Part shown: piece after piece, positions 935 to 25,051 of the stretch
How positions within the stretch are numbered: the first letter of the stretch is position 1
How the letters are laid out: each line of letters starts with the position of its first letter
Source of the DNA: Pseudomonas phage TIETA
Direction: 5' to 3' (one strand)
Sequence record: PV800129.1
DNA length: 64,000 nucleotides
Made by a program: the position numbers and the translations under genes
The notes under the pieces: generated by a model
Databases searched by the model: none
The model's input: only the letters and a program-made list of their open reading frames with translations
Told to the model about the DNA's origin: nothing

Positions 935-1332
935 ATCGACGGAGCCATGGTCAACCCCTCTTAGAGTGCGAGTAATCCGATAGCGAAGCTATCAAATGTA
1001 TATGCATATTCCATGCCAACATGTGGAAAGATTTTACCCGGCAGGGCGGGAGCCCGTTGGCATTAGTTTTGCATAGCTTAGCTGCCGCTAAGAAGGAAAG
1101 ACCACGGCCGCCCATTATTTTGAATTTACTAAGGGTTAGGGTAGCGAGGTGGGTTCGTGGTTAAGTAGCTCGGAAATAAATCCATAACTGGCAGAAGGCG
1201 AACCAGCAGAGGGTAGGCCCGCTCCCTCCATTATTTTCCCAGCAGTAGAGGAGGCACACTCTACAAACGTATCACTCTCTTCGGCGGGGGTTTAGGATTC
1301 GAATATACCTTTAGCGGCTAAATGCCATCATT

Positions 1333-1361
1333 GCTTATTTCCTATTTTCGTGCTATAATCC
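1333..1361 (+). promoter_or_regulatory. sigma70-like promoter (TTGCTT-N17-TATAAT) for small ORF
   Basis: ttgcttatttcctattttcgtgcTATAAT read in sequence. Confidence 0.4.
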
Positions 1362-1440
1362 TTATAGGATGTGCTTATTCTTCATTATAGCTGGATAAGC
1401 GATGGTTGTATAGATTCACCACAAATAGAAGGAATATAGA

Positions 1441-1598
1441 ATGGAAGATAATATTCAAGCTCCGCTTGCAGCTAGTGCAGGTGGCAAATTCGCAACTGTA
1501 TACGAAGCTATTGTCGCACTCGGAGTAGAAGGGGCTGCCGCTGTGTACAGGGCAGGTGTAGGGAATAGATTGACAACAGCTAGACCATCGGCGTGGTA
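1441..1598 (+). CDS. small hypothetical protein (52 aa, Ala/Gly-rich)
   Basis: ATG with GAAGGAA RBS, ends at TAA just before terminator; below ORF-track size cutoff. Confidence 0.3.
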
Positions 1599-5345: not shown

Positions 5346-5849
5346 CTAACCCTCCTCTTGGTCTGTCTGGGGAACATCCGGCTTGGGGTAGACGAATGTC
5401 TCTGGATACTTCATGCATCTTAGCTCATCTTTGCAGAACCCGTCAATCAATTTCTCATGTGCGAATTCCGCAGCCTTGTAGTAGCGATTAGCCTGTCTTG
5501 CCTCCACTCGAAGGAGGTGGCTTATCGTGTGAGCGTTGATATTACTAAGACTTGCAAAAATTGTCAAGAGCTTTTTTGCAGAAAGAGGAATCGACCTTTC
5601 ATCGGGTCTGTACCAGTCCAGCCGGGCAACTCCTTGGAGAACGTCGTCTACCCACAACGGGTAGTCTCCGTCTAGCTCGACCATGACTTCGTACATTTCA
5701 GGCTGAACAGCGTTGAAAAAGAAAGAGGGCTTTCGCCCTCTGCTGGTATCTAGAGGAGGAACAAGCCCCCTCTCCACCTTGTGAATCAACCGATCAGCAT
5801 TCGCCCCTATCCGAGACTTTAGCTCCTCGATCTCTTCACATGTCAACAT
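5346..5849 (-). CDS. hypothetical protein (167 aa)
   Basis: ORF; possible helix-turn-helix near LSNINAHTISHLLRVEARQANRY, unconfirmed. Confidence 0.45.
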   Translation of the reverse strand: MLTCEEIEELKSRIGANADRLIHKVERGLVPPLDTSRGRKPSFFFNAVQPEMYEVMVELDGDYPLWVDDVLQGVARLDWYRPDERSIPLSAKKLLTIFASLSNINAHTISHLLRVEARQANRYYKAAEFAHEKLIDGFCKDELRCMKYPETFVYPKPDVPQTDQEEG

Positions 5850-6294
5850 ACGGAGGGCACACCTTAGATTTCTCGATAGTGAACACGCCTTCGCATGTCA
5901 GGTTAGCAGGTCCATACCACTTGAACATGTTGTTGATATCGTATCGAATCAACTGGCGGAACTTCTGCCCGTCGCACATATCAACGTCGAACCACGCCAC
6001 GACCCATCTGACGTAATCTTCAGGGTCGTTCTCTTCTCGCCATCTGCACTCTAGATCAACGTGACTGGGCTCTAGAACGTAAATGTCTTCGAACCCTGTA
6101 CTCTGGTTGTTCTTAAGTCGGATGATTCGAGCGCGAATCCATTGCATGCACCTGCGGTTTGGGTCTGTGATATCGCAGACTACCGGAACCTCTGGAACCT
6201 CAACTGTATACATGATTGTACCTCTATTTGTTTTACAAGAACGCCATGATTCTGTCTCTATCTGCATGGCGGTACAGATTGAAGCAAGGCACAC
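5836..6294 (-). CDS. hypothetical Cys-rich protein (152 aa)
   Basis: ORF. Confidence 0.45.
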   Translation of the reverse strand: MCLASICTAMQIETESWRSCKTNRGTIMYTVEVPEVPVVCDITDPNRRCMQWIRARIIRLKNNQSTGFEDIYVLEPSHVDLECRWREENDPEDYVRWVVAWFDVDMCDGQKFRQLIRYDINNMFKWYGPANLTCEGVFTIEKSKVCPPYVDM

Positions 6295-6814
6295 CTCTAG
6301 AGGACGCCAGTTGCCAAGCGGTCCTAGTCCCGCCTTCTGGAATCCCGTTGTGGTCTGTCTTGCTCCAGCACACCAAGAACTTGCTAGGCGTGTTGAGATC
6401 GATTCCCAGCACTTGGAAAACGTTCCGAGTGTGGGCTCGTCTTGCGAACGGGCTTAGAACGGACCTCCCGTCATTTCTGACAGAGTTCCAAGCCGGATGA
6501 ATTTGACTGGCAATGCCTTTAGCTTCTTCCCATTCAGCCGGCAACTCTTTCTCTGGCAGGATGGTAGCTCCGAGCGTCTCAGTTATCACATACTGATTGA
6601 ACCCGGGCTCCGGCAGATAGATTTCTGCTGTAGTTCCTCCTCTATTATTGGAGATATAGTCTAGCCATCCTGCCTCGAACGCGGAGTCCGCCCCCTTCGC
6701 TCCTCCTGACCGAAGAATAAAACCTCGTTCCGCTAGTTTACGACCTAGCTCCCTGAGAATGCCCCACTCCTTGTTAGGCGTATCTCTACTTCCGACTCCT
6801 GTATAGTACTTCAT
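6233..6814 (-). CDS. DprA/Smf-like Rossmann-fold protein (SLOG superfamily)
   Basis: start at internal MKYYTGVGSRDTP (ATGA overlap with upstream stop); motifs GVGSR, SGGAKGADSAFEAG, PFARRAHTRN, GGTRTAWQLASSRGVPCFNL line up with DprA blocks GSR / SGxAxGxDxxAH / RNR / SGSxxTA. Confidence 0.6.
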   Translation of the reverse strand: MKYYTGVGSRDTPNKEWGILRELGRKLAERGFILRSGGAKGADSAFEAGWLDYISNNRGGTTAEIYLPEPGFNQYVITETLGATILPEKELPAEWEEAKGIASQIHPAWNSVRNDGRSVLSPFARRAHTRNVFQVLGIDLNTPSKFLVCWSKTDHNGIPEGGTRTAWQLASSRGVPCFNLYRHADRDRIMAFL

Positions 6815-7122
6815 CAATCCACCATCTGTCCAAGTTCTCCAGATGTTACCCAGTGTTGACGATAATCCCCTTCCGAGGTAGTGTACTCCACTAACACTGG
6901 ATAGAAGTCGTCTTCGTAGTCTATGGATACCACCTTGCATTCACATCCTCTGGGGATAGTGTACCCATCGCTTTTCATGGTTAGTAGCATTCCCCGGTAC
7001 ACGTCCTTTACCTCTAAACCGCTTCCTTCAGACGCTTCAAACTTGTGTCTCAATTTCTCGACTATTTGAACTTGCAAATAGAGAAGTTCATATGTTGTCA
7101 AGTTGTCCAGATCGATAGCCAT
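6814..7122 (-). CDS. hypothetical protein (102 aa)
   Basis: ORF. Confidence 0.45.
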   Translation of the reverse strand: MAIDLDNLTTYELLYLQVQIVEKLRHKFEASEGSGLEVKDVYRGMLLTMKSDGYTIPRGCECKVVSIDYEDDFYPVLVEYTTSEGDYRQHWVTSGELGQMVD

Positions 7123-7123
7123 G

Positions 7124-7273
7124 TCACTCCCTCCCTTCTAGCTTTTTGAATTCCTTGTCCAGCTTAGTTAGATGCTTATCCAGCTTATCTAGCTTTTTAT
7201 CCTGATAAAGCTGGAAAGCCTCCGAGCCCGGGGCCAACCAAGTCCCCTTATACTTAATTGCACCCCGGATCAT
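7124..7273 (-). CDS. small coiled-coil protein (49 aa)
   Basis: internal Met with AGGAGGAG RBS; KKLDKLDKHLTKLDKEFKKLE heptads; ORF trimmed to avoid overlap with macro gene. Confidence 0.35.
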   Translation of the reverse strand: MIRGAIKYKGTWLAPGSEAFQLYQDKKLDKLDKHLTKLDKEFKKLEGRE

Positions 7274-7284
7274 ATCTCCTCCTA

Positions 7285-7764
7285 TTACAGTTCGTAAACG
7301 TACACTTGAAACTGGCCCAGCGTCTCCTCTATAAGAGGCTCGACATTGCTCCAGTCCTCTCCGGCTAAACCGCATCCAATCTTCGGCAGACCTACACACA
7401 ACTCCGAGGTAGGAATCGCCCGAGCGTCAGCCTCTGCCTCAAGGAACAGAGACATAGTGTACAAGGCTTGGCCCAGTGCGTCAAGCTGAGTGTAGACTCG
7501 ACCCTCTTCTCGGCCATAGTTGTACTGTCCGTACAGATTATAAATCGATCCGTACTCGTTCATTGTGAAGGTGAGGGATCCGAGCTTTGCTCGGTCCCCT
7601 TTCTCCGTAGCTAGGTCCGCCTCGTAAGCTTCCGGGAATTGCTCCCGGATTTGCTTAGCAATGCCGCTGCCCATGGTGTTGAAGCAATTAGCCTGATGTG
7701 CAATAGCGTGCAACTCTTTGTTTTTGAACGCTGCGATAAGATCGCCCTTTCGGTATTTAATCAT
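7285..7764 (-). CDS. macro domain protein (ADP-ribose binding/processing)
   Basis: HQANCFNTMGSGIAKQIREQFPEA and GLPKIGCGLAGEDW match macro-domain signatures (NAAN...GGGV, P.IG.GL.G). Confidence 0.7.
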   Translation of the reverse strand: MIKYRKGDLIAAFKNKELHAIAHQANCFNTMGSGIAKQIREQFPEAYEADLATEKGDRAKLGSLTFTMNEYGSIYNLYGQYNYGREEGRVYTQLDALGQALYTMSLFLEAEADARAIPTSELCVGLPKIGCGLAGEDWSNVEPLIEETLGQFQVYVYEL

Positions 7765-7958
7765 TTGAACCTCTCTACACTTGTGTATCTGATATTCAAA
7801 CCTTCCGCATCAGCTCTGATCTTATCGTACATCAAGTCTAATGCTGCGAATGGAGACCAGTACCCTTTCTCCCAGATTTTAAACTTGAACAATCTATGTC
7901 CTTTATTCTCTGGTCGGCCTTGCTCACAGAAGGTTGTAAAATAATATTTAGCCAACAT
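7761..7958 (-). CDS. hypothetical protein (65 aa)
   Basis: start at internal Met with AAGGAGG RBS. Confidence 0.4.
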   Translation of the reverse strand: MLAKYYFTTFCEQGRPENKGHRLFKFKIWEKGYWSPFAALDLMYDKIRADAEGLNIRYTSVERFK

Positions 7959-7968
7959 CCTCGCCTCC

Positions 7969-9657
7969 TTACACGCCGTTCTTAATCCGATAACGGATGG
8001 ATTCCAGATCATTGTTCTTCAAATCTTCCGTGTCCCACTTACCGTCTTTGAAGAACGTCCGCAGATGCCCGGTAGCTTCCTCTTCCTTCGACACATCATC
8101 CTTCAGTCGGAGGAACCGTCCATTGTCTTGGTCCCGGTACACTTTCAAGAGACCTTTAGCCGACTTCTTCTTGCTATCAGTCTTGGGGTCTTTGAAGATT
8201 GCAATGCCTTCTCCATTCACCTCGGTGTAGGTGGCCTTCACTGCGAACCCGAAGGTGTCTCGGGTATTGCACTGATAGGTGTAACTCCCAACTCCGAAGA
8301 CCACGTTCAAGGATGCGAAACCTTTCTCCTTGAGCCGCTCCAAGATTTTGGCTGCCCGACGTGTGGTGATCGAATCCCCATAGATCAAACCGATATGAGA
8401 ATCCAGCATCTTATAACCAGCTTCGTTTACAGTACCACCGAAGGTTTCCCAAAGAACTTGGATAGCACCTTTCACCTGAGCCTCGCTAACTTCCTCTAGT
8501 TTATAGCCAACTACATACTCGTACTGGTCCCACTCGGTTGGAATGACCTTGAAATATTTATCTTCGAACTCTAGAACAAAAGCGTCATTTCCGTTGACCG
8601 CATCCATGATATCCCAGTGCTCAAGAGATTCAACAACTTCCACATCGCCCAGTCCGCAGATAACCTCTACAGGATCGCCAGAATCGGGACGAACAACCAG
8701 CTTGCCGTCACGTTCCATGATCTGATCCTTGATGGACGGCAGAATGTCAGTAAGCACGCCCCAGAAGTCGAAGCTGTCTGCCACGTAAGACAGAATACCA
8801 CTCGGGAACTTACCCATCAGTTCAACAAGGAATCGACGTTCTGCTTCCTCACGGCCACCTTTACCTTCTCCATCCTTCATTTCTTTCTCAATGCGGAGGA
8901 TGTTACTAGTAGCTACAGCGTGTTCAGTCGCAGGAACGGAGCAAGCTACCAAACCAGTCGCGTTATAGTAGTCCTCAGCATAAATAGCTGCTGCCAATGT
9001 GTCCGAACCTACGAACGAGGTCAAGTGACCAACACCACTTCGGGCCGCGTCTTCAATCCCACTCATACCCCGGGCACTGAAGTCGTGAAACTGAACGGAC
9101 AGCAGGAAGTCGTCGTAGCACCCAGTGTGGTTCGCGTAGTACCGGCCCATAGCTGCGTATTCTGCGGCAATGGTTGCGTTGGTTGCGGTCTTCCAAGTCA
9201 TAGCCGAAATCAGGGTCTCATGGTAGTTAACCAACCAATAGAACTCCGGCAGGGTGTTCTTGATAGTAAGCACCGGTACGCCCATAGGAACGCTAACGCC
9301 CTCGGTCAAAGACTTGACCTCCAGAGGCAGATAGCCGAGCTTGTGTAGGGCTCGAAGCTGCTCCACAGCCTCCATTTCACGGCCAAAGTAACCAGTCAGG
9401 AACCGGGCATACCGGCCAACTGCGTTCTCTTCGTCAGCCTTGAAGAAGCCTTCCCAAGACTCTACGATCTCCATCCAAGCAGCCCGCCCGCCAACCCATT
9501 TAAGAGTGCCGTCGTAGAAGTCGGTGGCGTGAGTCTTACGATAAATTTTGTCGGAACGAGGAGTCAGGTTGCTGTAGACGAGCTGAGTCCCTTCCGAGTA
9601 CATCGAGCCGTGCCCAATCTTATAGCCATCGGTGGACAGGTGTGGCAGAATTTTCAT
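7969..9657 (-). CDS. nicotinamide phosphoribosyltransferase family protein (NAMPT-like; candidate nicotinamide ADP-ribose transferase of NARP1)
   Basis: 562 aa; N-terminus LSTDGYKIGH typical of NAMPT; adjacent to PRS-like gene. Confidence 0.85.
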   Translation of the reverse strand: MKILPHLSTDGYKIGHGSMYSEGTQLVYSNLTPRSDKIYRKTHATDFYDGTLKWVGGRAAWMEIVESWEGFFKADEENAVGRYARFLTGYFGREMEAVEQLRALHKLGYLPLEVKSLTEGVSVPMGVPVLTIKNTLPEFYWLVNYHETLISAMTWKTATNATIAAEYAAMGRYYANHTGCYDDFLLSVQFHDFSARGMSGIEDAARSGVGHLTSFVGSDTLAAAIYAEDYYNATGLVACSVPATEHAVATSNILRIEKEMKDGEGKGGREEAERRFLVELMGKFPSGILSYVADSFDFWGVLTDILPSIKDQIMERDGKLVVRPDSGDPVEVICGLGDVEVVESLEHWDIMDAVNGNDAFVLEFEDKYFKVIPTEWDQYEYVVGYKLEEVSEAQVKGAIQVLWETFGGTVNEAGYKMLDSHIGLIYGDSITTRRAAKILERLKEKGFASLNVVFGVGSYTYQCNTRDTFGFAVKATYTEVNGEGIAIFKDPKTDSKKKSAKGLLKVYRDQDNGRFLRLKDDVSKEEEATGHLRTFFKDGKWDTEDLKNNDLESIRYRIKNGV

Positions 9658-9713
9658 GTTATTTCCTCCTGTTGTGTTGAATGGGCCCAGACTATATCAA
9701 TCTGGGCCTTATG

Positions 9714-9932
9714 TCAATACTCAATTTCTTCTGCTGGCAGTGTCAGCACAGGGTAGATGCATGGAAGACGCAGTAATGTTTGCTTCTTGCTATGAAAGTC
9801 TTCCCAAAACTTCTCATGTAGCACCTTGTACCGGGCGTCCAGTTCCTCCTTGGTGTCGAACTCCTCCACCTTGACAACCCTCTTCTCTGGAGCCGAACGC
9901 TTATACTCTACAATCCAGATACTCAAGCTCAC
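9714..9932 (-). CDS. hypothetical protein (72 aa)
   Basis: ORF. Confidence 0.4.
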   Translation of the reverse strand: MSLSIWIVEYKRSAPEKRVVKVEEFDTKEELDARYKVLHEKFWEDFHSKKQTLLRLPCIYPVLTLPAEEIEY

Positions 9933-10795
9933 AGGCGTTCCGCCTTAGAGTATTCAACCGGAATGACAGTTAGCGCTTCGTGCTCTTTTTGAGGGAGCGT
10001 GTCCGAGGTGTAGATGCATCCGAAGGAATCCAGCAAGCAGTCGATACCCTTACTGAAGATTCCATGAGTGACGAACAGGTCAGGGAGCACTTTACTGTAC
10101 TCTCTTAGGGCCTTAGACACGCTTCGGAATGTAGCACCTCCGTCACAGATATCGTCGATCACCAGAAGCGGAAGTTCAGGATCGATATCCGAAGGATTCA
10201 GAATTTCAAAGCCTTCGATTTTACCGGTCTGGAGATCGCGCTTCTTATTGCAACGAATTACAGCGGCTGCTCCGGCCTTCTTTGCAAAATCCTCGGTCCG
10301 CTTTGTTGCTCCGATATCAGGGGCTACGAGTTGATATTGCTCCCACTCTGAACGGCTCAGTAGGCCACCGAAGACCGAAGATTGACGGACAACTTCGACG
10401 TTGTTAATCAGGTGCAGAGTTGCGTCGCTGTGAGGGTCCACAACGATAACTCGGTCATATCCGGCAGAGTTCAGCATGTTTGCAAACACTTTCAAACTGA
10501 AGGCGTCGCCCGGATTGCACCGACGGTCTTGGCGAGCATACGGGACATAACCCAGCAGAAGAGTCATGTGCGGATTAATCATTTCTGCTCGGATCGCCTC
10601 GGTGACGTTGAGAAGAGCCATGATATCATCACTATTCTGAATCTGAGCTTTAACGTTTACGAACGCATGGCTTTCGATGCCGCCCACATTAACGCCCACT
10701 TCGCCGCCCGGGAACGTCCACACTTTTGCCTCTTTCCACGGACGGCTCATAACACCTTCCATTTCCTGAAGGCAACCTACAGCATAACTAATCAT
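9929..10795 (-). CDS. ribose-phosphate pyrophosphokinase family protein (PRS-like; candidate ADPR pyrophosphokinase of NARP1)
   Basis: YARQDRR and PRPP-binding loop VIDDICDGGATF. Confidence 0.85.
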   Translation of the reverse strand: MISYAVGCLQEMEGVMSRPWKEAKVWTFPGGEVGVNVGGIESHAFVNVKAQIQNSDDIMALLNVTEAIRAEMINPHMTLLLGYVPYARQDRRCNPGDAFSLKVFANMLNSAGYDRVIVVDPHSDATLHLINNVEVVRQSSVFGGLLSRSEWEQYQLVAPDIGATKRTEDFAKKAGAAAVIRCNKKRDLQTGKIEGFEILNPSDIDPELPLLVIDDICDGGATFRSVSKALREYSKVLPDLFVTHGIFSKGIDCLLDSFGCIYTSDTLPQKEHEALTVIPVEYSKAERL

Positions 10796-10804
10796 ACATC
10801 CTCC

Positions 10805-11221
10805 TCACAGTTTCACAGAGAAGCGATTCCGCATTGCTTCCATCGTGCTCTCGGGAACATCGTGTACAGACTTATTCCCATGACGATTCTCTACAATCAG
10901 AGAGATAACAGTGTAGCCAAACTCTTCAGCCATGTCAATGTATGGTGCTACCTCTCGCTCCCGGGTACTAGTATTGGATACGATAACCGCATCTAGTCCT
11001 ATCTCCATAGACCGTCGCGCTTTGTCCATGCACTTTTTGTGAGATTCAACTACCCTCTCAGCTTTCCACACATACTTGCCGAACTCCATTTGGTAATCGT
11101 CCGCTTCGCAGATAGACGCCTGCCGGCCTGACTCCCAAGTTTTGTTATACAGAATCTCGGCAAGAGAGGACTTCCCGGAGCCCGGGAGTCCTCGAATGAT
11201 ATACATGATCTTTTCCTGCAT
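10805..11221 (-). CDS. polynucleotide 5'-kinase, P-loop (T4 Pnk kinase-domain-like)
   Basis: GLPGSGKSSLA Walker A; ...DDY... and IVSNTSTREREVAPYIDMAEEFGY parallel T4 Pnk CPGSGKST...DDYR...ISDTNLNPERR...EYGW. Confidence 0.7.
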   Translation of the reverse strand: MQEKIMYIIRGLPGSGKSSLAEILYNKTWESGRQASICEADDYQMEFGKYVWKAERVVESHKKCMDKARRSMEIGLDAVIVSNTSTREREVAPYIDMAEEFGYTVISLIVENRHGNKSVHDVPESTMEAMRNRFSVKL

Positions 11222-11231
11222 ATTCCCTCCT

Positions 11232-12149
11232 TTAAATTCTAGTCATATCGAAGTAGGTTTCGATCAGAAGACGCCGCTGGGCATCAGTCATTTCTACGAA
11301 ACAGGACTCCTCTACTTCATTTACCAAGAAGTCTACCAGAGGATAGAACTCTTCGTCAAGCGTCTGCTTGAATCCAGCCGGGTCTTGGTACATCGCATTG
11401 ACCTTCTTACTACCCATCCTCATGATAAACTTCTTGCCGAGGTAGTGAGTTGACTTGCACTTCACTGTCCCTAGCCCTGTTTGTACCATGTAACCTTCTT
11501 TCTCACAAGAACTCAGAAGACCCTTTGCATGTTCCCAGCTACACTCTATGTGCTCTGGACGAAGAATCTTTACAGAACTGTGGTCCGTTACACCTAGGGC
11601 GTGAGAGTCAAGAATATATTCTGAAAGCTGGCCCCCAGTGAAGATATCGCGGATACCGATCAAATATGCCCCTTCTTCTTCCTCGACAATGTGAGGGTCG
11701 TCTGGAGAGCATATCTCGAAGTTATATGTGAAGCCTGCGATGTAATCATCTGGGTTATTCGACACATACTTCTGACCAAGGGCAACGTAATCGCCGGTCA
11801 ATGACCCCGTAGTACTGAAGATAAGGGAGCCATTGTGCTTAGTCACGGAGAACATGAATCCATTCACTTTCTCAATCAGCCGCACACGGAATTTAGGATG
11901 GAGGAAACTCCCAGCACCATTCTCTCCCAGATTAAACACCTTCTCGAAGGGGCGTACAATACAATCACCGGAGTGCTGGTCAAATACATGACCCCGTGCC
12001 TCCAGAAGGAGCGGATGCTCATTCCACAGGTTCTCGTAGAACACCTTCCGGGCATACTTTATAATCGACATACCGTTGAAGTGCTTAACAGTCACCAGCT
12101 TATTAGCGATCAGGTCTTTGTACATTGCAATGTTGAGATTACCTTCCAT
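11232..12149 (-). CDS. RNA ligase 1 family (T4 Rnl1/gp63-like)
   Basis: LEARGHVFD...KVFNLGENG and TKHNGSLIFST resemble T4 Rnl1 LECRGIMFE...KFFNLNENP and lysine motif TKEDGSLVSTY. Confidence 0.7.
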   Translation of the reverse strand: MEGNLNIAMYKDLIANKLVTVKHFNGMSIIKYARKVFYENLWNEHPLLLEARGHVFDQHSGDCIVRPFEKVFNLGENGAGSFLHPKFRVRLIEKVNGFMFSVTKHNGSLIFSTTGSLTGDYVALGQKYVSNNPDDYIAGFTYNFEICSPDDPHIVEEEEGAYLIGIRDIFTGGQLSEYILDSHALGVTDHSSVKILRPEHIECSWEHAKGLLSSCEKEGYMVQTGLGTVKCKSTHYLGKKFIMRMGSKKVNAMYQDPAGFKQTLDEEFYPLVDFLVNEVEESCFVEMTDAQRRLLIETYFDMTRI

Positions 12150-13645: not shown

Positions 13646-14076
13646 TATGCCTCCATTTCAAATTCGTAAATTTTGTTAATCCTGCGGATGAGTCGCATAG
13701 CGGCCCCTCCCAGCAGATGTTCACGCTCCGGCTCCATACTAGCCATAGCCTTGAACTCTGATAACATATCTCGACGCTCGTAGTGGAAATCTACTACCCA
13801 GTAATGGTCCGCACTAATCTTACCCTCTCGGTACAGATGCCCTTCTACGCCCAGCCAGTGATCTACTGCGTCTTTCTTCAGAAGCTCCTTCGGAGACCAC
13901 TTATCTACACCTCGCAGCTTCTCGAAGAAAGAGTAAGGACGCGAATAGCTGATGATAGCTTCCTCTACAGCCGATTCAGCCTGCAATTGGACTAACTCCC
14001 ATCTTGCAAGGACTTCTTTAATCTCCCCGGTGGTGACTGGGGTGTAGCTGTACTGCTCTTTATATTCATTCCACAC
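13645..14076 (-). CDS. hypothetical protein (143 aa)
   Basis: ORF. Confidence 0.45.
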   Translation of the reverse strand: MWNEYKEQYSYTPVTTGEIKEVLARWELVQLQAESAVEEAIISYSRPYSFFEKLRGVDKWSPKELLKKDAVDHWLGVEGHLYREGKISADHYWVVDFHYERRDMLSEFKAMASMEPEREHLLGGAAMRLIRRINKIYEFEMEA

Positions 14077-14626
14077 TGTACTGTTCTCCTACATAGCCTT
14101 TGAATTTGTCGGAACGAGTTGTCTTCTTCCGTGCCTTGTTTTCCAGAACTGATGCCTCCCTTTCGAGCATGCTCAGTTGGTTGCTATACTTCTTGATCCG
14201 CTTCGAGTTACCACTCATCACAGAATTTGTAAGATTTGCGATAGTATCGCAAATTTTCACTTCTCTTGCAACCGGATGATTACGGCAAGCTTCGATATAC
14301 TTACGGTAGCTCTCAGCACGGTTCTTATCGAGAATGACCAAAGCCTCTACGATGTGAGGCATCACGCCCATGGACTCCAAGTCTTCCTCTGTCAACTCTG
14401 TATCCTCCAGAACGTCGTGCAGGAAGCACACAGCGAGAAGAGTGTCCATGTACGGAAGGTCGGAGAAAGCCTGACCCGGGTCCATATCTTTAGGAGCGTT
14501 GCGAGCCACGCAGACTGTATGCACCTGATTCAGATGGTAAGCATACGGGAAGTTGGTCTCTCCGTACCGCTGACCTTCGTGAGCCGAGAGTGCGATCTCA
14601 ATAGCGATACCAAGCTGAGTGTTCAT
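14066..14626 (-). CDS. HD-domain hydrolase, RelA/SpoT-type (candidate small alarmone hydrolase)
   Basis: YHLNQVHTVCVA...DTLLAVCFLHDVLEDT matches SpoT HD core (H...HD..ED). Confidence 0.65.
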   Translation of the reverse strand: MNTQLGIAIEIALSAHEGQRYGETNFPYAYHLNQVHTVCVARNAPKDMDPGQAFSDLPYMDTLLAVCFLHDVLEDTELTEEDLESMGVMPHIVEALVILDKNRAESYRKYIEACRNHPVAREVKICDTIANLTNSVMSGNSKRIKKYSNQLSMLEREASVLENKARKKTTRSDKFKGYVGEQYSVE

Positions 14627-24375: not shown

Positions 24376-24451
24376 GCGGGTATAGCTCAGTTGGTAGAGC
24401 GTCTGCCTTCCAAGCAGTTCGTCGTCGGTTCGAGTCCGTCTATCCGCTCCA
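24376..24451 (+). tRNA. tRNA-Gly (anticodon TCC)
   Basis: acceptor gcgggta/tatccgc + T + CCA, D arm gctc-agttggta-gagc, anticodon loop cTTCCaa. Confidence 0.75.
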
Positions 24452-24468
24452 AACAATGCAGAGGTGTC

Positions 24469-24984
24469 ATGAACTACGAGAGACTATACTACAACATCGT
24501 TAGGACCGCCAGAGACAGAAAAACACCCTCTGGATATTTCGAGTCTCACCATGTAGTTCCTAGGTCTCTTGGAGGTTCAGATGACCCGGAGAATCTTGTA
24601 AACGTAACTGCAAGAGAACATTTTATATTGCACTACCTGTTAACGAAGTTCCACAATGGTGCAGATAAAATCAAGATGCTTCATGCGTTCATGCTGATGA
24701 GCGGCGGAAACGACAGACAACACCGATACATCAATGGTAGGCTCTATGAGGCCAAGAAGTCTGATTTTGCAAAAGCTCAGCGTGATAGATTCTCTGGAGT
24801 ACCTAAGACAGAAGAGCATAAACGTAAAATATCCGAATCCCTTAAAGGTCGGACTACTTCAGAAGCTACTAAAAAGAAGCAATCTGAGTCCGCCAGTAAG
24901 AGAAAAAGGAAACAATTCTCTCCTGAGTACAAAGAGGCTATGTCTCTCAGGATGAAGAAGATTAAGAACAAGAAGGGACTGTAG
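24469..24984 (+). CDS. HNH homing endonuclease with C-terminal NUMOD3-like repeats
   Basis: GAGGTG RBS; SGYFESHHVVPRSLGGSDDPENLVNVTAREH is the HNH core; EEHKRKISESLKG and SPEYKEAMS are NUMOD3-like; stop TAG lies inside tRNA-Phe. Confidence 0.75.
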   Translation: MNYERLYYNIVRTARDRKTPSGYFESHHVVPRSLGGSDDPENLVNVTAREHFILHYLLTKFHNGADKIKMLHAFMLMSGGNDRQHRYINGRLYEAKKSDFAKAQRDRFSGVPKTEEHKRKISESLKGRTTSEATKKKQSESASKRKRKQFSPEYKEAMSLRMKKIKNKKGL

Positions 24985-25051
24985 CTCAGAAGGTTAGAGC
25001 GGTGGATTGAAATCCCACAGGTCGGGCGTTCGATTCGCCCCGGTCCTACCA
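24975..25051 (+). tRNA. tRNA-Phe (anticodon GAA); 5' end overlaps HNH gene stop
   Basis: acceptor gggactg/cggtcct + A + CCA, D arm gctc-agaaggtta-gagc, anticodon loop tTGAAat, T arm gggcg-ttcgatt-cgccc. Confidence 0.7.

Follow-up and report, generated by a model that had tools for sequence, protein, structure and literature searches.

Two motifs, G-S/T/A-R and F/L/Y-x-x-R-N/D, mediate the binding of single-stranded DNA (ssDNA) by DprA, and mutagenesis has established that they are essential in Helicobacter pylori DprA (HpDprA) (Wang et al. 2014). In this protein, the two motifs hold one nucleobase and the neighbouring phosphate, and the DprA domain by itself binds ssDNA at about 30 nM. DprA-like proteins are also found as antitoxins: ShosA and PsyrA counteract the PRTase toxins ShosT and PsyrT, respectively. 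A different group of described proteins acts on NAD+ metabolism during infection. Adpp is an ADPR-1''-phosphate phosphatase that turns the product of the aRES defence into a substrate of the NARP1 pathway and thereby lets NARP1 overcome aRES; the combined pathway is termed NARP1-AP, and the three-gene NARP1-AP operon of Vibrio phage Gary, in which Adpp is KNV71_gp137, has been validated (Osterman et al. 2026 preprint, 10.64898/2026.01.28.702374).

Here we analyse a locus in which a NARP1-AP block is followed by the gene for a stand-alone SLOG-fold protein of the phrog_768 family. This family is among the largest phage protein families without an assigned function. Its current annotation, 'DNA recombination mediator', reflects a sub-threshold match, and the alternative proposed in the literature, the processing of ADPr-derived signals, is drawn from context. 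The ligand of the conserved SLOG pocket would fix the annotation of thousands of genes and could expose another layer of the NAD+/ADP-ribose arms race. The DNA analysed (the window, 64,000 nt) was assigned to Pakpunavirus and is 100% identical to Pseudomonas phage vB_PaeM_ZGC. Such phages are candidates for therapy and can be edited with Cas9 (PMC12845329).

Gene order from Adps to the SLOG gene

All genes of the locus lie on the minus strand. The first is Adps (9929..10795), the PRS-like ADP-ribose pyrophosphate synthetase that forms enzyme 1 of NARP1 (Pfam Pribosyltran_N, 1e-08; phrog_619, 5e-96); the syntenic gene of phage Adele is annotated as ADP-ribose pyrophosphate synthetase. It is followed by a small ORF of 72 aa (9714..9932, from the ORF list), conservation of which is restricted to Pakpunavirus loci, and by Namat (7969..9657), the NAMPT-like nicotinamide ADP-ribose transferase that forms enzyme 2 (Pfam NAPRTase, 9e-38; phrog_448, 6.5e-194) and has an Adele counterpart annotated as nicotinamide ADP-ribosyltransferase. 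Next come a Pakpunavirus-specific 65-aa protein (7761..7958; phrog_6997, 2e-44, matching residues 19–83 of a longer ORF), the 159-aa macro-domain protein (7285..7764), a 49-aa protein (7124..7273; phrog_6391, 3e-33) and a 102-aa protein (6814..7122; phrog_8023, 3.8e-48). The run ends with the 193-aa SLOG protein (6233..6814). In related phages, the 49-aa protein accompanies the macro and SLOG genes, between which it is found in 14 loci. Downstream of the SLOG gene, the next gene encodes a 125-aa protein (5836..6213; phrog_6932, 1.1e-87, residues 28–152 of the ORF).

The sequence-only reading had placed the SLOG and macro genes in the same leftward operon as the NAMPT-like/PRS-like pair and immediately downstream of it. 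Both ORFs exist at the coordinates given above, on the minus strand, and both lie downstream of Namat. However, 'immediately' is a little loose, as one small gene precedes the macro gene and two more separate it from the SLOG gene. The run from Adps to the SLOG gene is tightly packed and co-oriented, with gaps of at most 56 nt or overlaps, and no terminator-like site was found on the minus strand from Namat to the SLOG gene. A single operon spanning Adps, Namat, macro and SLOG is thus plausible, as judged from the sequence. Adjacency need not mean a shared pathway, since anti-defence and accessory genes cluster in any case. At a larger scale, the SLOG gene is located in the early leftward arm, together with RNA-repair enzymes, NARP1-AP and an alarmone hydrolase, and the replication genes of this phage lie about 50 kb away.

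The macro-domain protein and the NARP1-AP pathway

The macro-domain protein falls just short of the Pfam Macro threshold (21.1 bits against a cut-off of 22), and solved macro domains match it clearly: 5e3b (E = 9.5e-11), BT1257, Poa1p (6lfu; 4e-06) and TARG1/OARD1 (7e-05). It keeps the H23/N26/G-rich motif, described as Poa1p-like in the Adele paper, and scores about equally against DarG macro domain models. Its identity with the validated Adpp of phage Gary is 41% over 153 aa (E = 5e-31). The NARP1-associated macro proteins tabulated by Osterman et al. (Table S1 of 10.64898/2026.01.28.702374) include the same sequence, from phage C2-10_Ab1. The gene also lies within two genes of the Adps–Namat pair, the distance adopted by Osterman et al., with one 65-aa ORF intervening on the same strand.

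By homology and by the published table listing, the macro protein is a member of the Adpp family, which bears out the earlier proposal that it belongs to a layer of NAD+ counter-defence, here that of NARP1-AP. The window and Gary proteins are of the same size, share a Poa1p/TARG1-class macro domain and are encoded beside Adps and Namat; they differ in gene order, in that the Gary gene sits between Adps and Namat, whereas the gene in the window lies downstream of Namat, past the 65-aa ORF. In place of the general removal of ADP-ribosylation that had been suggested for it, the family has a specific published role as ADPR-1''-phosphate phosphatase, an activity that we infer for the window protein from its Gary orthologue. 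RES-type cleavage of NAD+ produces ADPR-1''-phosphate; the macro protein would take off its 1''-phosphate to yield ADPR, which Adps and Namat would then convert to NAD+. The macro gene offers no novelty, being another Pakpunavirus copy of the published NARP1-AP phosphatase.

Fold and pocket of the SLOG protein

The SLOG coding sequence is part of a longer ORF (6233..6940), within which the biologically sensible start is at 6814. The ATG at this position overlaps the stop codon of the upstream 102-aa gene by 1 nt (TGATG), alignments of the PHROG and of homologues begin at this Met, and the same 582-nt coding sequence is annotated in related phages. The protein matches phrog_768 'DprA-like' with an E-value of 8.8e-69. 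Its AF2 model (pLDDT 95.1, pTM 0.91) comprises one domain of 193 aa and confirms a Rossmann-type DprA fold; the earlier assignments to the SLOG superfamily (phrog_768 and AF2 model) and to the macro domain (PDB matches) were thus right. In structure comparisons, the nearest folds are those of DprA and ShosA, ahead of LOG and of the ThsA SLOG domain (scores of 14.6 for DprA, 11.9 for YpsA, 10–12 for LOG and 10.7 for ThsA). A comparison with DprA, LOG and ThsA-SLOG structures, which the sequence-only reading had proposed as a check, accordingly supports the SLOG fold and places LOG and ThsA behind DprA and ShosA.

Similarity to DprA is much weaker at the level of sequence. Pfam DNA_processg_A (PF02481) gave 20.4 bits against a cut-off of 29.6 and covered residues 7–48 only, TIGR00732 gave 15.4 against a threshold of 191, and the profile search against PDB DprA was not significant (E = 0.24). 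Canonical DprA membership by sequence was rejected on these Pfam, TIGRFAM and PDB profile scores. The model nevertheless identifies the SLOG protein as a single-domain 'mini-DprA', a Rossmann-like protein with a predicted nucleotide pocket.

The DprA-defining motifs are 94–100% conserved among 250 phrog_768 members, each taken from a different 50%-identity cluster. Motif 1 is G8-S9-R10 (94–98% conserved in these members), and HMM alignment puts R10 on the Arg of the HpDprA 'R-P-T-P' sequence. Motif 2 has the family consensus L-H-T-R-N, in which R130 and N131 are invariant; the window protein carries A-H-T-R-N, which resembles the A-M-x-R-N/D variant. This comparison with DprA relies on short stretches plus the fold, overall sequence similarity being not significant. 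Further polar residues are invariant and specific to the family (R35, H106, H128, Q134 and N179), and H106 is carried by a helical insert at about residues 67–121. Where LOG proteins have PGGxGTxxE, the SLOG protein has G161-G162-T163-R-T165-A166, with a nearly invariant Ala three residues past the Thr. Since the catalytic Glu is missing, the protein is not an N-glycosidase of the LOG type, and assignment as a LOG-type phosphoribohydrolase was rejected on the same ground. The isoelectric point was dropped as a proxy for DNA binding, since family values range from 4.4 to 10.2 (median 7.8) and are uninformative.

These features bear directly on the idea that the SLOG protein is a functional analogue of DprA. 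As a dimer it would bind ssDNA during replication, recombination or repair, either to protect the phage's own single strands or to load a recombinase (host RecA or one encoded by the phage); it would have no ADP-ribose ligand, and its proximity to NARP1 would be incidental. Its nearest solved folds, DprA and ShosA, fit this reading, as do the conservation of both HpDprA ssDNA-binding motifs, the binding of ssDNA by the isolated HpDprA domain and the binding of ssDNA and RecA by the DprA-like antitoxin ShosA. However, the Pfam and TIGRFAM DprA thresholds are missed by a wide margin, the five family-specific invariant residues suggest a more specific ligand or chemistry, the family is not consistently basic, and the EVADES authors found that conservation of the RecA interface is absent in a similarly annotated phage protein. 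On balance, with the genomic contexts given below, we regard a DprA analogue as rather unlikely.

The fold ranking also weighs on the sequence-only proposal that the protein is a ThsA-SLOG-like sponge (or a hydrolase) for Thoeris gcADPR signals and hence a new anti-Thoeris mechanism. NAD+/ADPr-linked fusions and neighbourhoods in the family would fit such a role, and viral SLOG domains have been proposed to sense or degrade cADPr-type signals (Iyer et al. 2022, PMC9503650). But ThsA ranks below DprA, ShosA, MCP, TM1055, the LOG proteins and YpsA, the acidic residue of the GGxGTxxE type is replaced (GGTRTA), and the protein neither resembles known sponges nor shows signs of oligomeric pockets. 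In addition, NARP1 is published to neutralise NAD+ depletion by type I Thoeris, so that there is no obvious need for a sponge, and the family is spread far more widely than one signalling system would predict. With the DprA ssDNA motifs kept, the LOG-type acidic residue absent and Gary NARP1-AP working without a SLOG protein, the sponge proposal found no support, and we give it very little credence. Nor is the broader idea of viral stand-alone SLOG proteins directed against ADP-ribose-derived signals new, as it was already predicted by Iyer et al. (PMC9503650).

As a third alternative, the protein could counter defence by inhibiting some unrelated target, such as an Avs/STAND sensor or a different defence protein, as is reported for ORF83 of phage DruSM1 (annotated 'DprA/Smf'; anti-AVAST type III), or it could be a phosphoribohydrolase of AMP-like nucleotides. 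Deletion of DruSM1 ORF83 lowered infectivity on AVAST type III hosts, EVADES predicts that ORF83 binds AMP, its R-N pair and G-T motif occupying places equivalent to those of the SLOG protein, and counter-defence genes abound in the arm that contains the SLOG gene. By contrast, an HMM search of the first 50 kb of Queuovirinae phage 9g, a relative of DruSM1, found no family member; ORF83, compared by its published description, has an Asp two residues past the motif Thr where phrog_768 has an invariant Thr; and phosphoribohydrolase chemistry is unlikely without the LOG catalytic Glu. We regard this alternative as very unlikely.

Family contexts and comparison with known systems

At least 1,507 of 50,697 phage records carry a phrog_768 member, which amounts to about 3% of sequenced phage genomes, and clustering at 50% identity divides the family into 5,858 groups. 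Fusions to NADAR (P0146) or DUF4326 (P0175, P0198 and L072) occur among strong members (E <= 1e-52), and two 1,475-aa polyproteins (P0122 and P0124) combine the family SLOG domain with YAcAr and LDcluster4 SLOG domains and NADAR. A PD-(D/E)XK nuclease is the fusion partner of one homologue. NAD+ salvage genes are found no more than 5 kb from the SLOG gene in four distinct arrangements: the Pakpunavirus-like NARP1-AP block, Adps-Namat-x-SLOG, NadM/Nudix-NAMPT (NARP2)-x-SLOG and SLOG-NTase-AAA_28-Adps-Namat. Among 76 sampled loci, the top-scoring relatives of a query with NAD+ linkage of its own, at least 16 show such linkage; these represent 7 of 39 SLOG clusters at 60% identity, for which the chance expectation is well under one. 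In about 60 of the 80 loci sampled, and in most of the 1,507 records from phages, the gene is away from NAD+ genes.

Other contexts are of a different kind. In Thalassavirus (Gary and Cody; T5-like), the SLOG gene sits between two NAD-ligase subunits in the replication module, and in Sphingomonad ICE-like regions its companions are SSB, SRAP and SNase (for high-GC bacterial loci, neighbours were clustered with a GC3–GC2 frame filter against wrong-frame ORFs). These contexts and the PD-(D/E)XK fusion are compatible with a plain ssDNA role and count in favour of the DprA analogue. In RB49, Phapecoctavirus, N4-like phages and this phage, however, the gene is in accessory regions and not among recombination genes, and a DprA analogue leaves the NADAR and DUF4326 fusions and the repeated NARP linkage unexplained. 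The SLOG homologue of Gary is about 45 kb from NARP1-AP; a requirement for SLOG in NARP1-AP was rejected because the three-gene operon of this phage works without it. A SLOG component was also looked for in the NARP3 paper, and none was found. The SLOG protein is thus not a core component of NARP1-AP.

What still stands of the proposed link between the SLOG family and NAD+/ADP-ribose biology is suggested by the domain fusions and gene neighbourhoods; Iyer et al. (2022) had independently drawn this conclusion from context. The SLOG protein is probably an accessory of an NAD+/ADP-ribose conflict toolkit with a nucleotide or ssDNA pocket. Its DprA-type pocket may bind an adenine- or ADP-ribose-bearing nucleotide, either free or attached to, or part of, ssDNA, and the protein could pass this ligand to ADP-ribose-processing enzymes (macro, NADAR or DUF4326) or act beside them. 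Both the ligand class and any role in counter-defence are putative. We tentatively favour, at somewhat less than an even chance, a joint reading in which the macro protein is Adpp and the mini-DprA is an independent early accessory of the phage NAD+/ADP-ribose toolkit. A bolder proposal is that the mini-DprA represents a new type of counter-defence, in which the base-gripping pocket would recognise ADP-ribose-bearing nucleotides. These could be bases in phage ssDNA that carry ADP-ribose, in which case the protein would cooperate with macro or NADAR hydrolases against DarT-type toxins, or soluble ADPR-derived signals, sequestered in a manner distinct from Tad1 and Tad2. We consider this proposal unlikely.

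Among solved structures, the closest comparison of the favoured mini-DprA is with the DprA domain (H. pylori DprA, 4LJK/4LJR; R. palustris, 3MAJ), with which 137 of 193 residues superpose at 18–19% identity. Unlike DprA, the SLOG protein has no SAM or winged-helix domains, scores under all curated DprA thresholds, contains the helical insert with His106, and has its gene in accessory regions of virulent phages. ShosA, a host antitoxin that binds ssDNA and RecA, is larger (about 320 aa) and includes a SAM domain, whereas the neighbours of the SLOG gene in the window, Adps and Namat, are not toxins. The ThsA SLOG domain, a gcADPR receptor, and LOG share the superfamily fold and the glycine-rich loops after strands 2 and 4, but their structural scores are lower, and the SLOG protein has neither the Glu of GGxGTxxE nor a fused SIR2 effector. 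The viral stand-alone SLOG proteins described by Iyer, Burroughs, Anantharaman and Aravind (2022) are the same kind of protein: they are stand-alone or fused to NADAR, DUF4326 or Macro, are enriched in larger phages, and show sporadic fusions to nucleic-acid enzymes. The window family has this context, with members fused to NADAR or DUF4326 and, here, a macro gene three genes away. Most viral SLOG proteins were placed by these authors in a YpsA-like clade predicted to act on soluble cADPr, whereas the model of the window protein is nearer to DprA than to YpsA and keeps the DprA ssDNA motifs intact.

The leftward run from Adps to the SLOG gene

The SLOG and macro genes lie in one leftward run that begins with the NAD+-rebuilding enzymes of NARP1. 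It is composed of Adps (9929..10795), a 72-aa ORF (9714..9932), Namat (7969..9657), a 65-aa ORF (7761..7958), the macro gene (7285..7764), a 49-aa ORF (7124..7273), a 102-aa ORF (6814..7122) and the SLOG gene (6233..6814), all on the minus strand and followed by further small genes. The genes overlap or are separated by gaps of at most 56 nt, the SLOG start ATG shares bases with the preceding stop (TGATG), and a search of the Namat–SLOG interval on the minus strand found no terminator-like site; this part of the sequence-only reading is thus confirmed. From the tight packing and terminator absence, we infer that the run is co-transcribed. Directly upstream of Adps are genes for a P-loop polynucleotide-kinase-like protein (AAA_33, lacking a phosphatase domain; 10805..11221, minus strand) and, beyond it, a T4 Rnl1-type RNA ligase (11232..12149, minus strand). 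The RNA- and NAD+-repair genes thus make up a single uninterrupted counter-defence block. The related phage Adele has another RNA ligase annotated farther to the right.

The left genome end is the start of the window. Across 5800..10800 the sequence matches that of Pseudomonas phage vB_PaeM_ZGC at 100% identity, and about 117 further Pakpunavirus genomes (for example, PaoP5, PAK_P4 and Adele) match it at 92–98%. A SLOG protein 100% identical to that of the window is also encoded at 982..1560 of CP042877.1 (H21 among our phage-record matches), a 7.4-kb entry labelled 'Bacillus phage GaW-2019a' with Bacillus cereus as host; this entry is probably a Pakpunavirus fragment that was mislabelled or came in as a contaminant. 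The leftward arm shared with the SLOG gene includes an ORF (14066..14626, minus strand) syntenic with the 'small alarmone hydrolase' of phage Adele, for which PADLOC gave no match; its neighbours encode a lytic transglycosylase, an ATP-dependent DNA ligase, a dCMP deaminase and an HslV-like protease. Inside the tRNA array, an HNH endonuclease ORF (24391..24984, plus strand; motif HHVVPRS...ENLVNVTAREH) is flanked by tRNA-Gly (24376..24451) and tRNA-Phe (24975..25051). In Adele these two tRNAs are separated by just 7 nt, so the ORF looks like a homing-endonuclease insertion.

The macro gene and the NARP1-AP pathway

The nearest solved structures to the macro protein belong to the SCO6735, BT1257, Poa1p and TARG1 class of macro domains. 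The Sorek laboratory reported in a preprint of January 2026 (10.64898/2026.01.28.702374) that RES-domain defence proteins (aRES) split NAD+ into nicotinamide and ADPR-1''-phosphate, the latter unusable by Adps, and that 15% of NARP1 operons encode a Poa1p-like macro protein, Adpp, that removes the 1''-phosphate and restores NAD+ synthesis (the NARP1-AP pathway). Table S1 of that work includes 72 Pseudomonas phage entries (among them PaoP5, PAK_P1/2/4, JG004 and PaP1), and its vB_PaeM_C2-10_Ab1 entry is identical to the window macro protein in every letter. The window protein is also 41% identical (E 5e-31) to the purified and assayed enzyme of Vibrio phage Gary, and the phage Adele paper had already noted Poa1p-like catalytic residues in the same gene (PMC12846349). 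The macro gene is therefore already known, and its role is explained by the published NARP1-AP work: its proposed part in NAD+ counter-defence stands, its novelty does not. DarG macro-domain models also match the protein, as expected for this class of macro domain, so it may have a second activity on ADP-ribosylated DNA.

Family, fold and pocket of the SLOG protein

The SLOG protein matches phrog_768, 'DprA-like DNA recombination-mediator protein' (E 8.8e-69), and falls under the cut-offs of Pfam DNA_processg_A (20.4 versus 29.6 bits, matching only the N-terminal 42 residues) and TIGR00732 (15.4 versus 191). Its family comprises 936 matches in a 90%-identity database and 5,858 representatives of 50%-identity clusters (2,042 at E <= 1e-30), mostly stand-alone proteins of 170–200 aa. 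It is present in 1,507 of 50,697 phage records, including Pakpunavirus, T4-like, T5-like, N4-like, phiKZ-like and rV5-like phages. A confident AlphaFold2 model (46 homologues; pLDDT 95.1, pTM 0.91) scored highest against DprA (14.6 for 3maj, 13.6 for 4ljk), followed by ShosA (8zva; 13.4), Moco carrier protein (13.4), TM1055 (13.0), LOG enzymes (10–12.3), YpsA (11.9) and the ThsA SLOG domain with 3'cADPR (7uxs; 10.7). On this model the closest branch is DprA, by a modest margin, and the original description of the fold as DprA/SLOG-like was correct.

Among 250 members, each from a different 50%-identity cluster, R35, G37, A39, D43, H128, R130, N131, Q134, G161, G162 and T163 are invariant, and conservation is 97% or higher at G8, R10, G41, H106, G137 and N179. 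In the H. pylori DprA–ssDNA structure, two motifs are essential for ssDNA binding: G-S/T/A-R, of which Arg52 is the pocket 'switch', and F/L/Y-x-x-R-N/D, of which Arg143 and Asn144 grip the inserted base; R52E and R143E lower affinity 315-fold and 173-fold (PMC3950713). The SLOG protein keeps both (G8-S9-R10 and L/A127-H128-T129-R130-N131), together with the S-G-x-A-x-G-x-D loop. By contrast, the family's invariant polar residues R35, H106 (in a helical insert), H128, Q134 and N179 are absent from DprA, and these residues hint at a more specific ligand, or some chemistry. Pakpunavirus members have Glu at position 69, where 91% of the family has Trp, and a 13-residue insertion at 111–123 (SVRNDGRSVLSPF) ahead of the H-T-R-N helix; a few other lineages share this insertion. 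The acidic residue of the LOG/ThsA-type GGxGTxxE motif is missing (GGTRTA), making a LOG-like N-glycosidase mechanism unlikely. With this residue replaced and ThsA scoring 10.7 against 14.6 for DprA, the headline mechanism of the sequence-only reading, a gcADPR sponge against Thoeris, is unsupported and very improbable.

Genomic settings and candidate functions

A required role in NARP1-AP was ruled out. Gary encodes a clear SLOG family member (gp58; 33% identity, E 6e-22) distant from its NARP1-AP genes (167–169), and this three-gene operon, cloned alone, beat aRES and Nezha in E. coli (10.64898/2026.01.28.702374), so the SLOG protein is not a required component.

Several settings point instead to DNA. 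In the T5-like Thalassavirus Vibrio phages Cody (L082) and Gary (L146), NAD-dependent DNA ligase is encoded as two subunits, A and B, and between these halves, within the replication module, lie the SLOG gene and a single small ORF. The family is rare in bacterial genomes (57 loci), occurring mostly in Sphingomonadaceae and concentrated in Novosphingobium and Sphingobium; there, L098:2637-10924 and about 40 more loci (L091–L142) share a block ordered DUF736, SRAP, two unknown genes, SLOG, one unknown gene, DUF1173 (opposite strand), SSB and SNase, which looks like a conjugative-element region. An Armatimonadota MAG encodes a 425-aa fusion of the SLOG domain to a C-terminal PD-(D/E)XK nuclease (L101:5959-7236, plus strand), and the host protein ShosA, a DprA-like antitoxin paired with a PRTase toxin, binds both ssDNA and RecA. 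These observations point to a plain DprA-like role in ssDNA handling or recombination, which we rank second and regard as rather unlikely. Against a core recombination role, about 50 kb separate the SLOG gene of the window phage from the genes for primase-helicase, polymerase and resolvase; the SLOG gene lies in an early leftward arm with the RNA ligase, kinase, NARP1-AP, alarmone hydrolase and HslV-like protease, a placement that favours host conflict. In Pakpunavirus PaGZ-1, the gene served as an early-expressed qPCR reference in one paper. Elsewhere it lies between gp24 and hoc (RB49), between rIIB and a ribonucleotide reductase gene (an N4-like roseophage), amid early phosphatases and methyltransferases (Phapecoctavirus) or among genes of unassigned function (a phiKZ-like phage). 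An unrelated anti-defence target, such as that of the 'DprA/Smf'-annotated anti-AVAST protein DruSM1 ORF83, is improbable.

Other settings tie the family to NAD+ and ADP-ribose. Among the 80 best IMG/VR loci, which are relatives of the SLOG query, a Namat/NAMPT homologue lies within 10 kb in 26 and the macro protein is present in 18, many of these loci being non-independent because a Pakpunavirus-like lineage has the whole block in common. Three further arrangements occur: Adps-Namat-x-SLOG (L018, L019 and L031), NadM/Nudix-NAMPT (NARP2) followed by a small ORF and SLOG (L033), and SLOG-PolyA_pol-type NTase-AAA_28-Adps-Namat (L056). When SLOG sequences are collapsed at 60% identity, an NAD+ salvage gene lies within 5 kb in 7 of the resulting 39 clusters, whereas NARP1 and NARP2 occur anywhere in the genome in about 4% and 1% of phages (10.64898/2026.01.28.702374); this is a large excess, even with the bias from sampling relatives of the query taken into account. 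Strong members are fused to NADAR (P0146) or DUF4326 (P0175, P0198 and L072), and two polyproteins (P0122, 1475 aa; P0124, 1488 aa) combine the domain with YAcAr and LDcluster4 SLOG domains and a C-terminal NADAR. NADAR is described as stripping ADP-ribose off guanine in DNA, and phage NADARs as countering DarT1 (PMC11825919). The ADP-ribose-enzyme and ssDNA evidence is compatible with one pocket that grips a nucleotide, free or within ssDNA. On these grounds we put first, tentatively, a reading in which the SLOG protein would be an independent accessory of the NAD+/ADP-ribose conflict toolkit, its DprA-type pocket binding an ADPr- or adenine-bearing nucleotide.

The SLOG gene is a new member of a family that has many members and has already been annotated and discussed, and the SLOG/macro finding contains no categorically new element; the family merits experiments because it is large, has a pocket under very strong conservation and is repeatedly tied to genes of NAD+/ADP-ribose biology. 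Iyer et al. (2022) reported these same SLOG associations and predicted for viral SLOG domains a role in sensing or cleaving signals derived from ADPr (PMC9503650), and the general form of the sequence-only SLOG proposal is thus an already published prediction.
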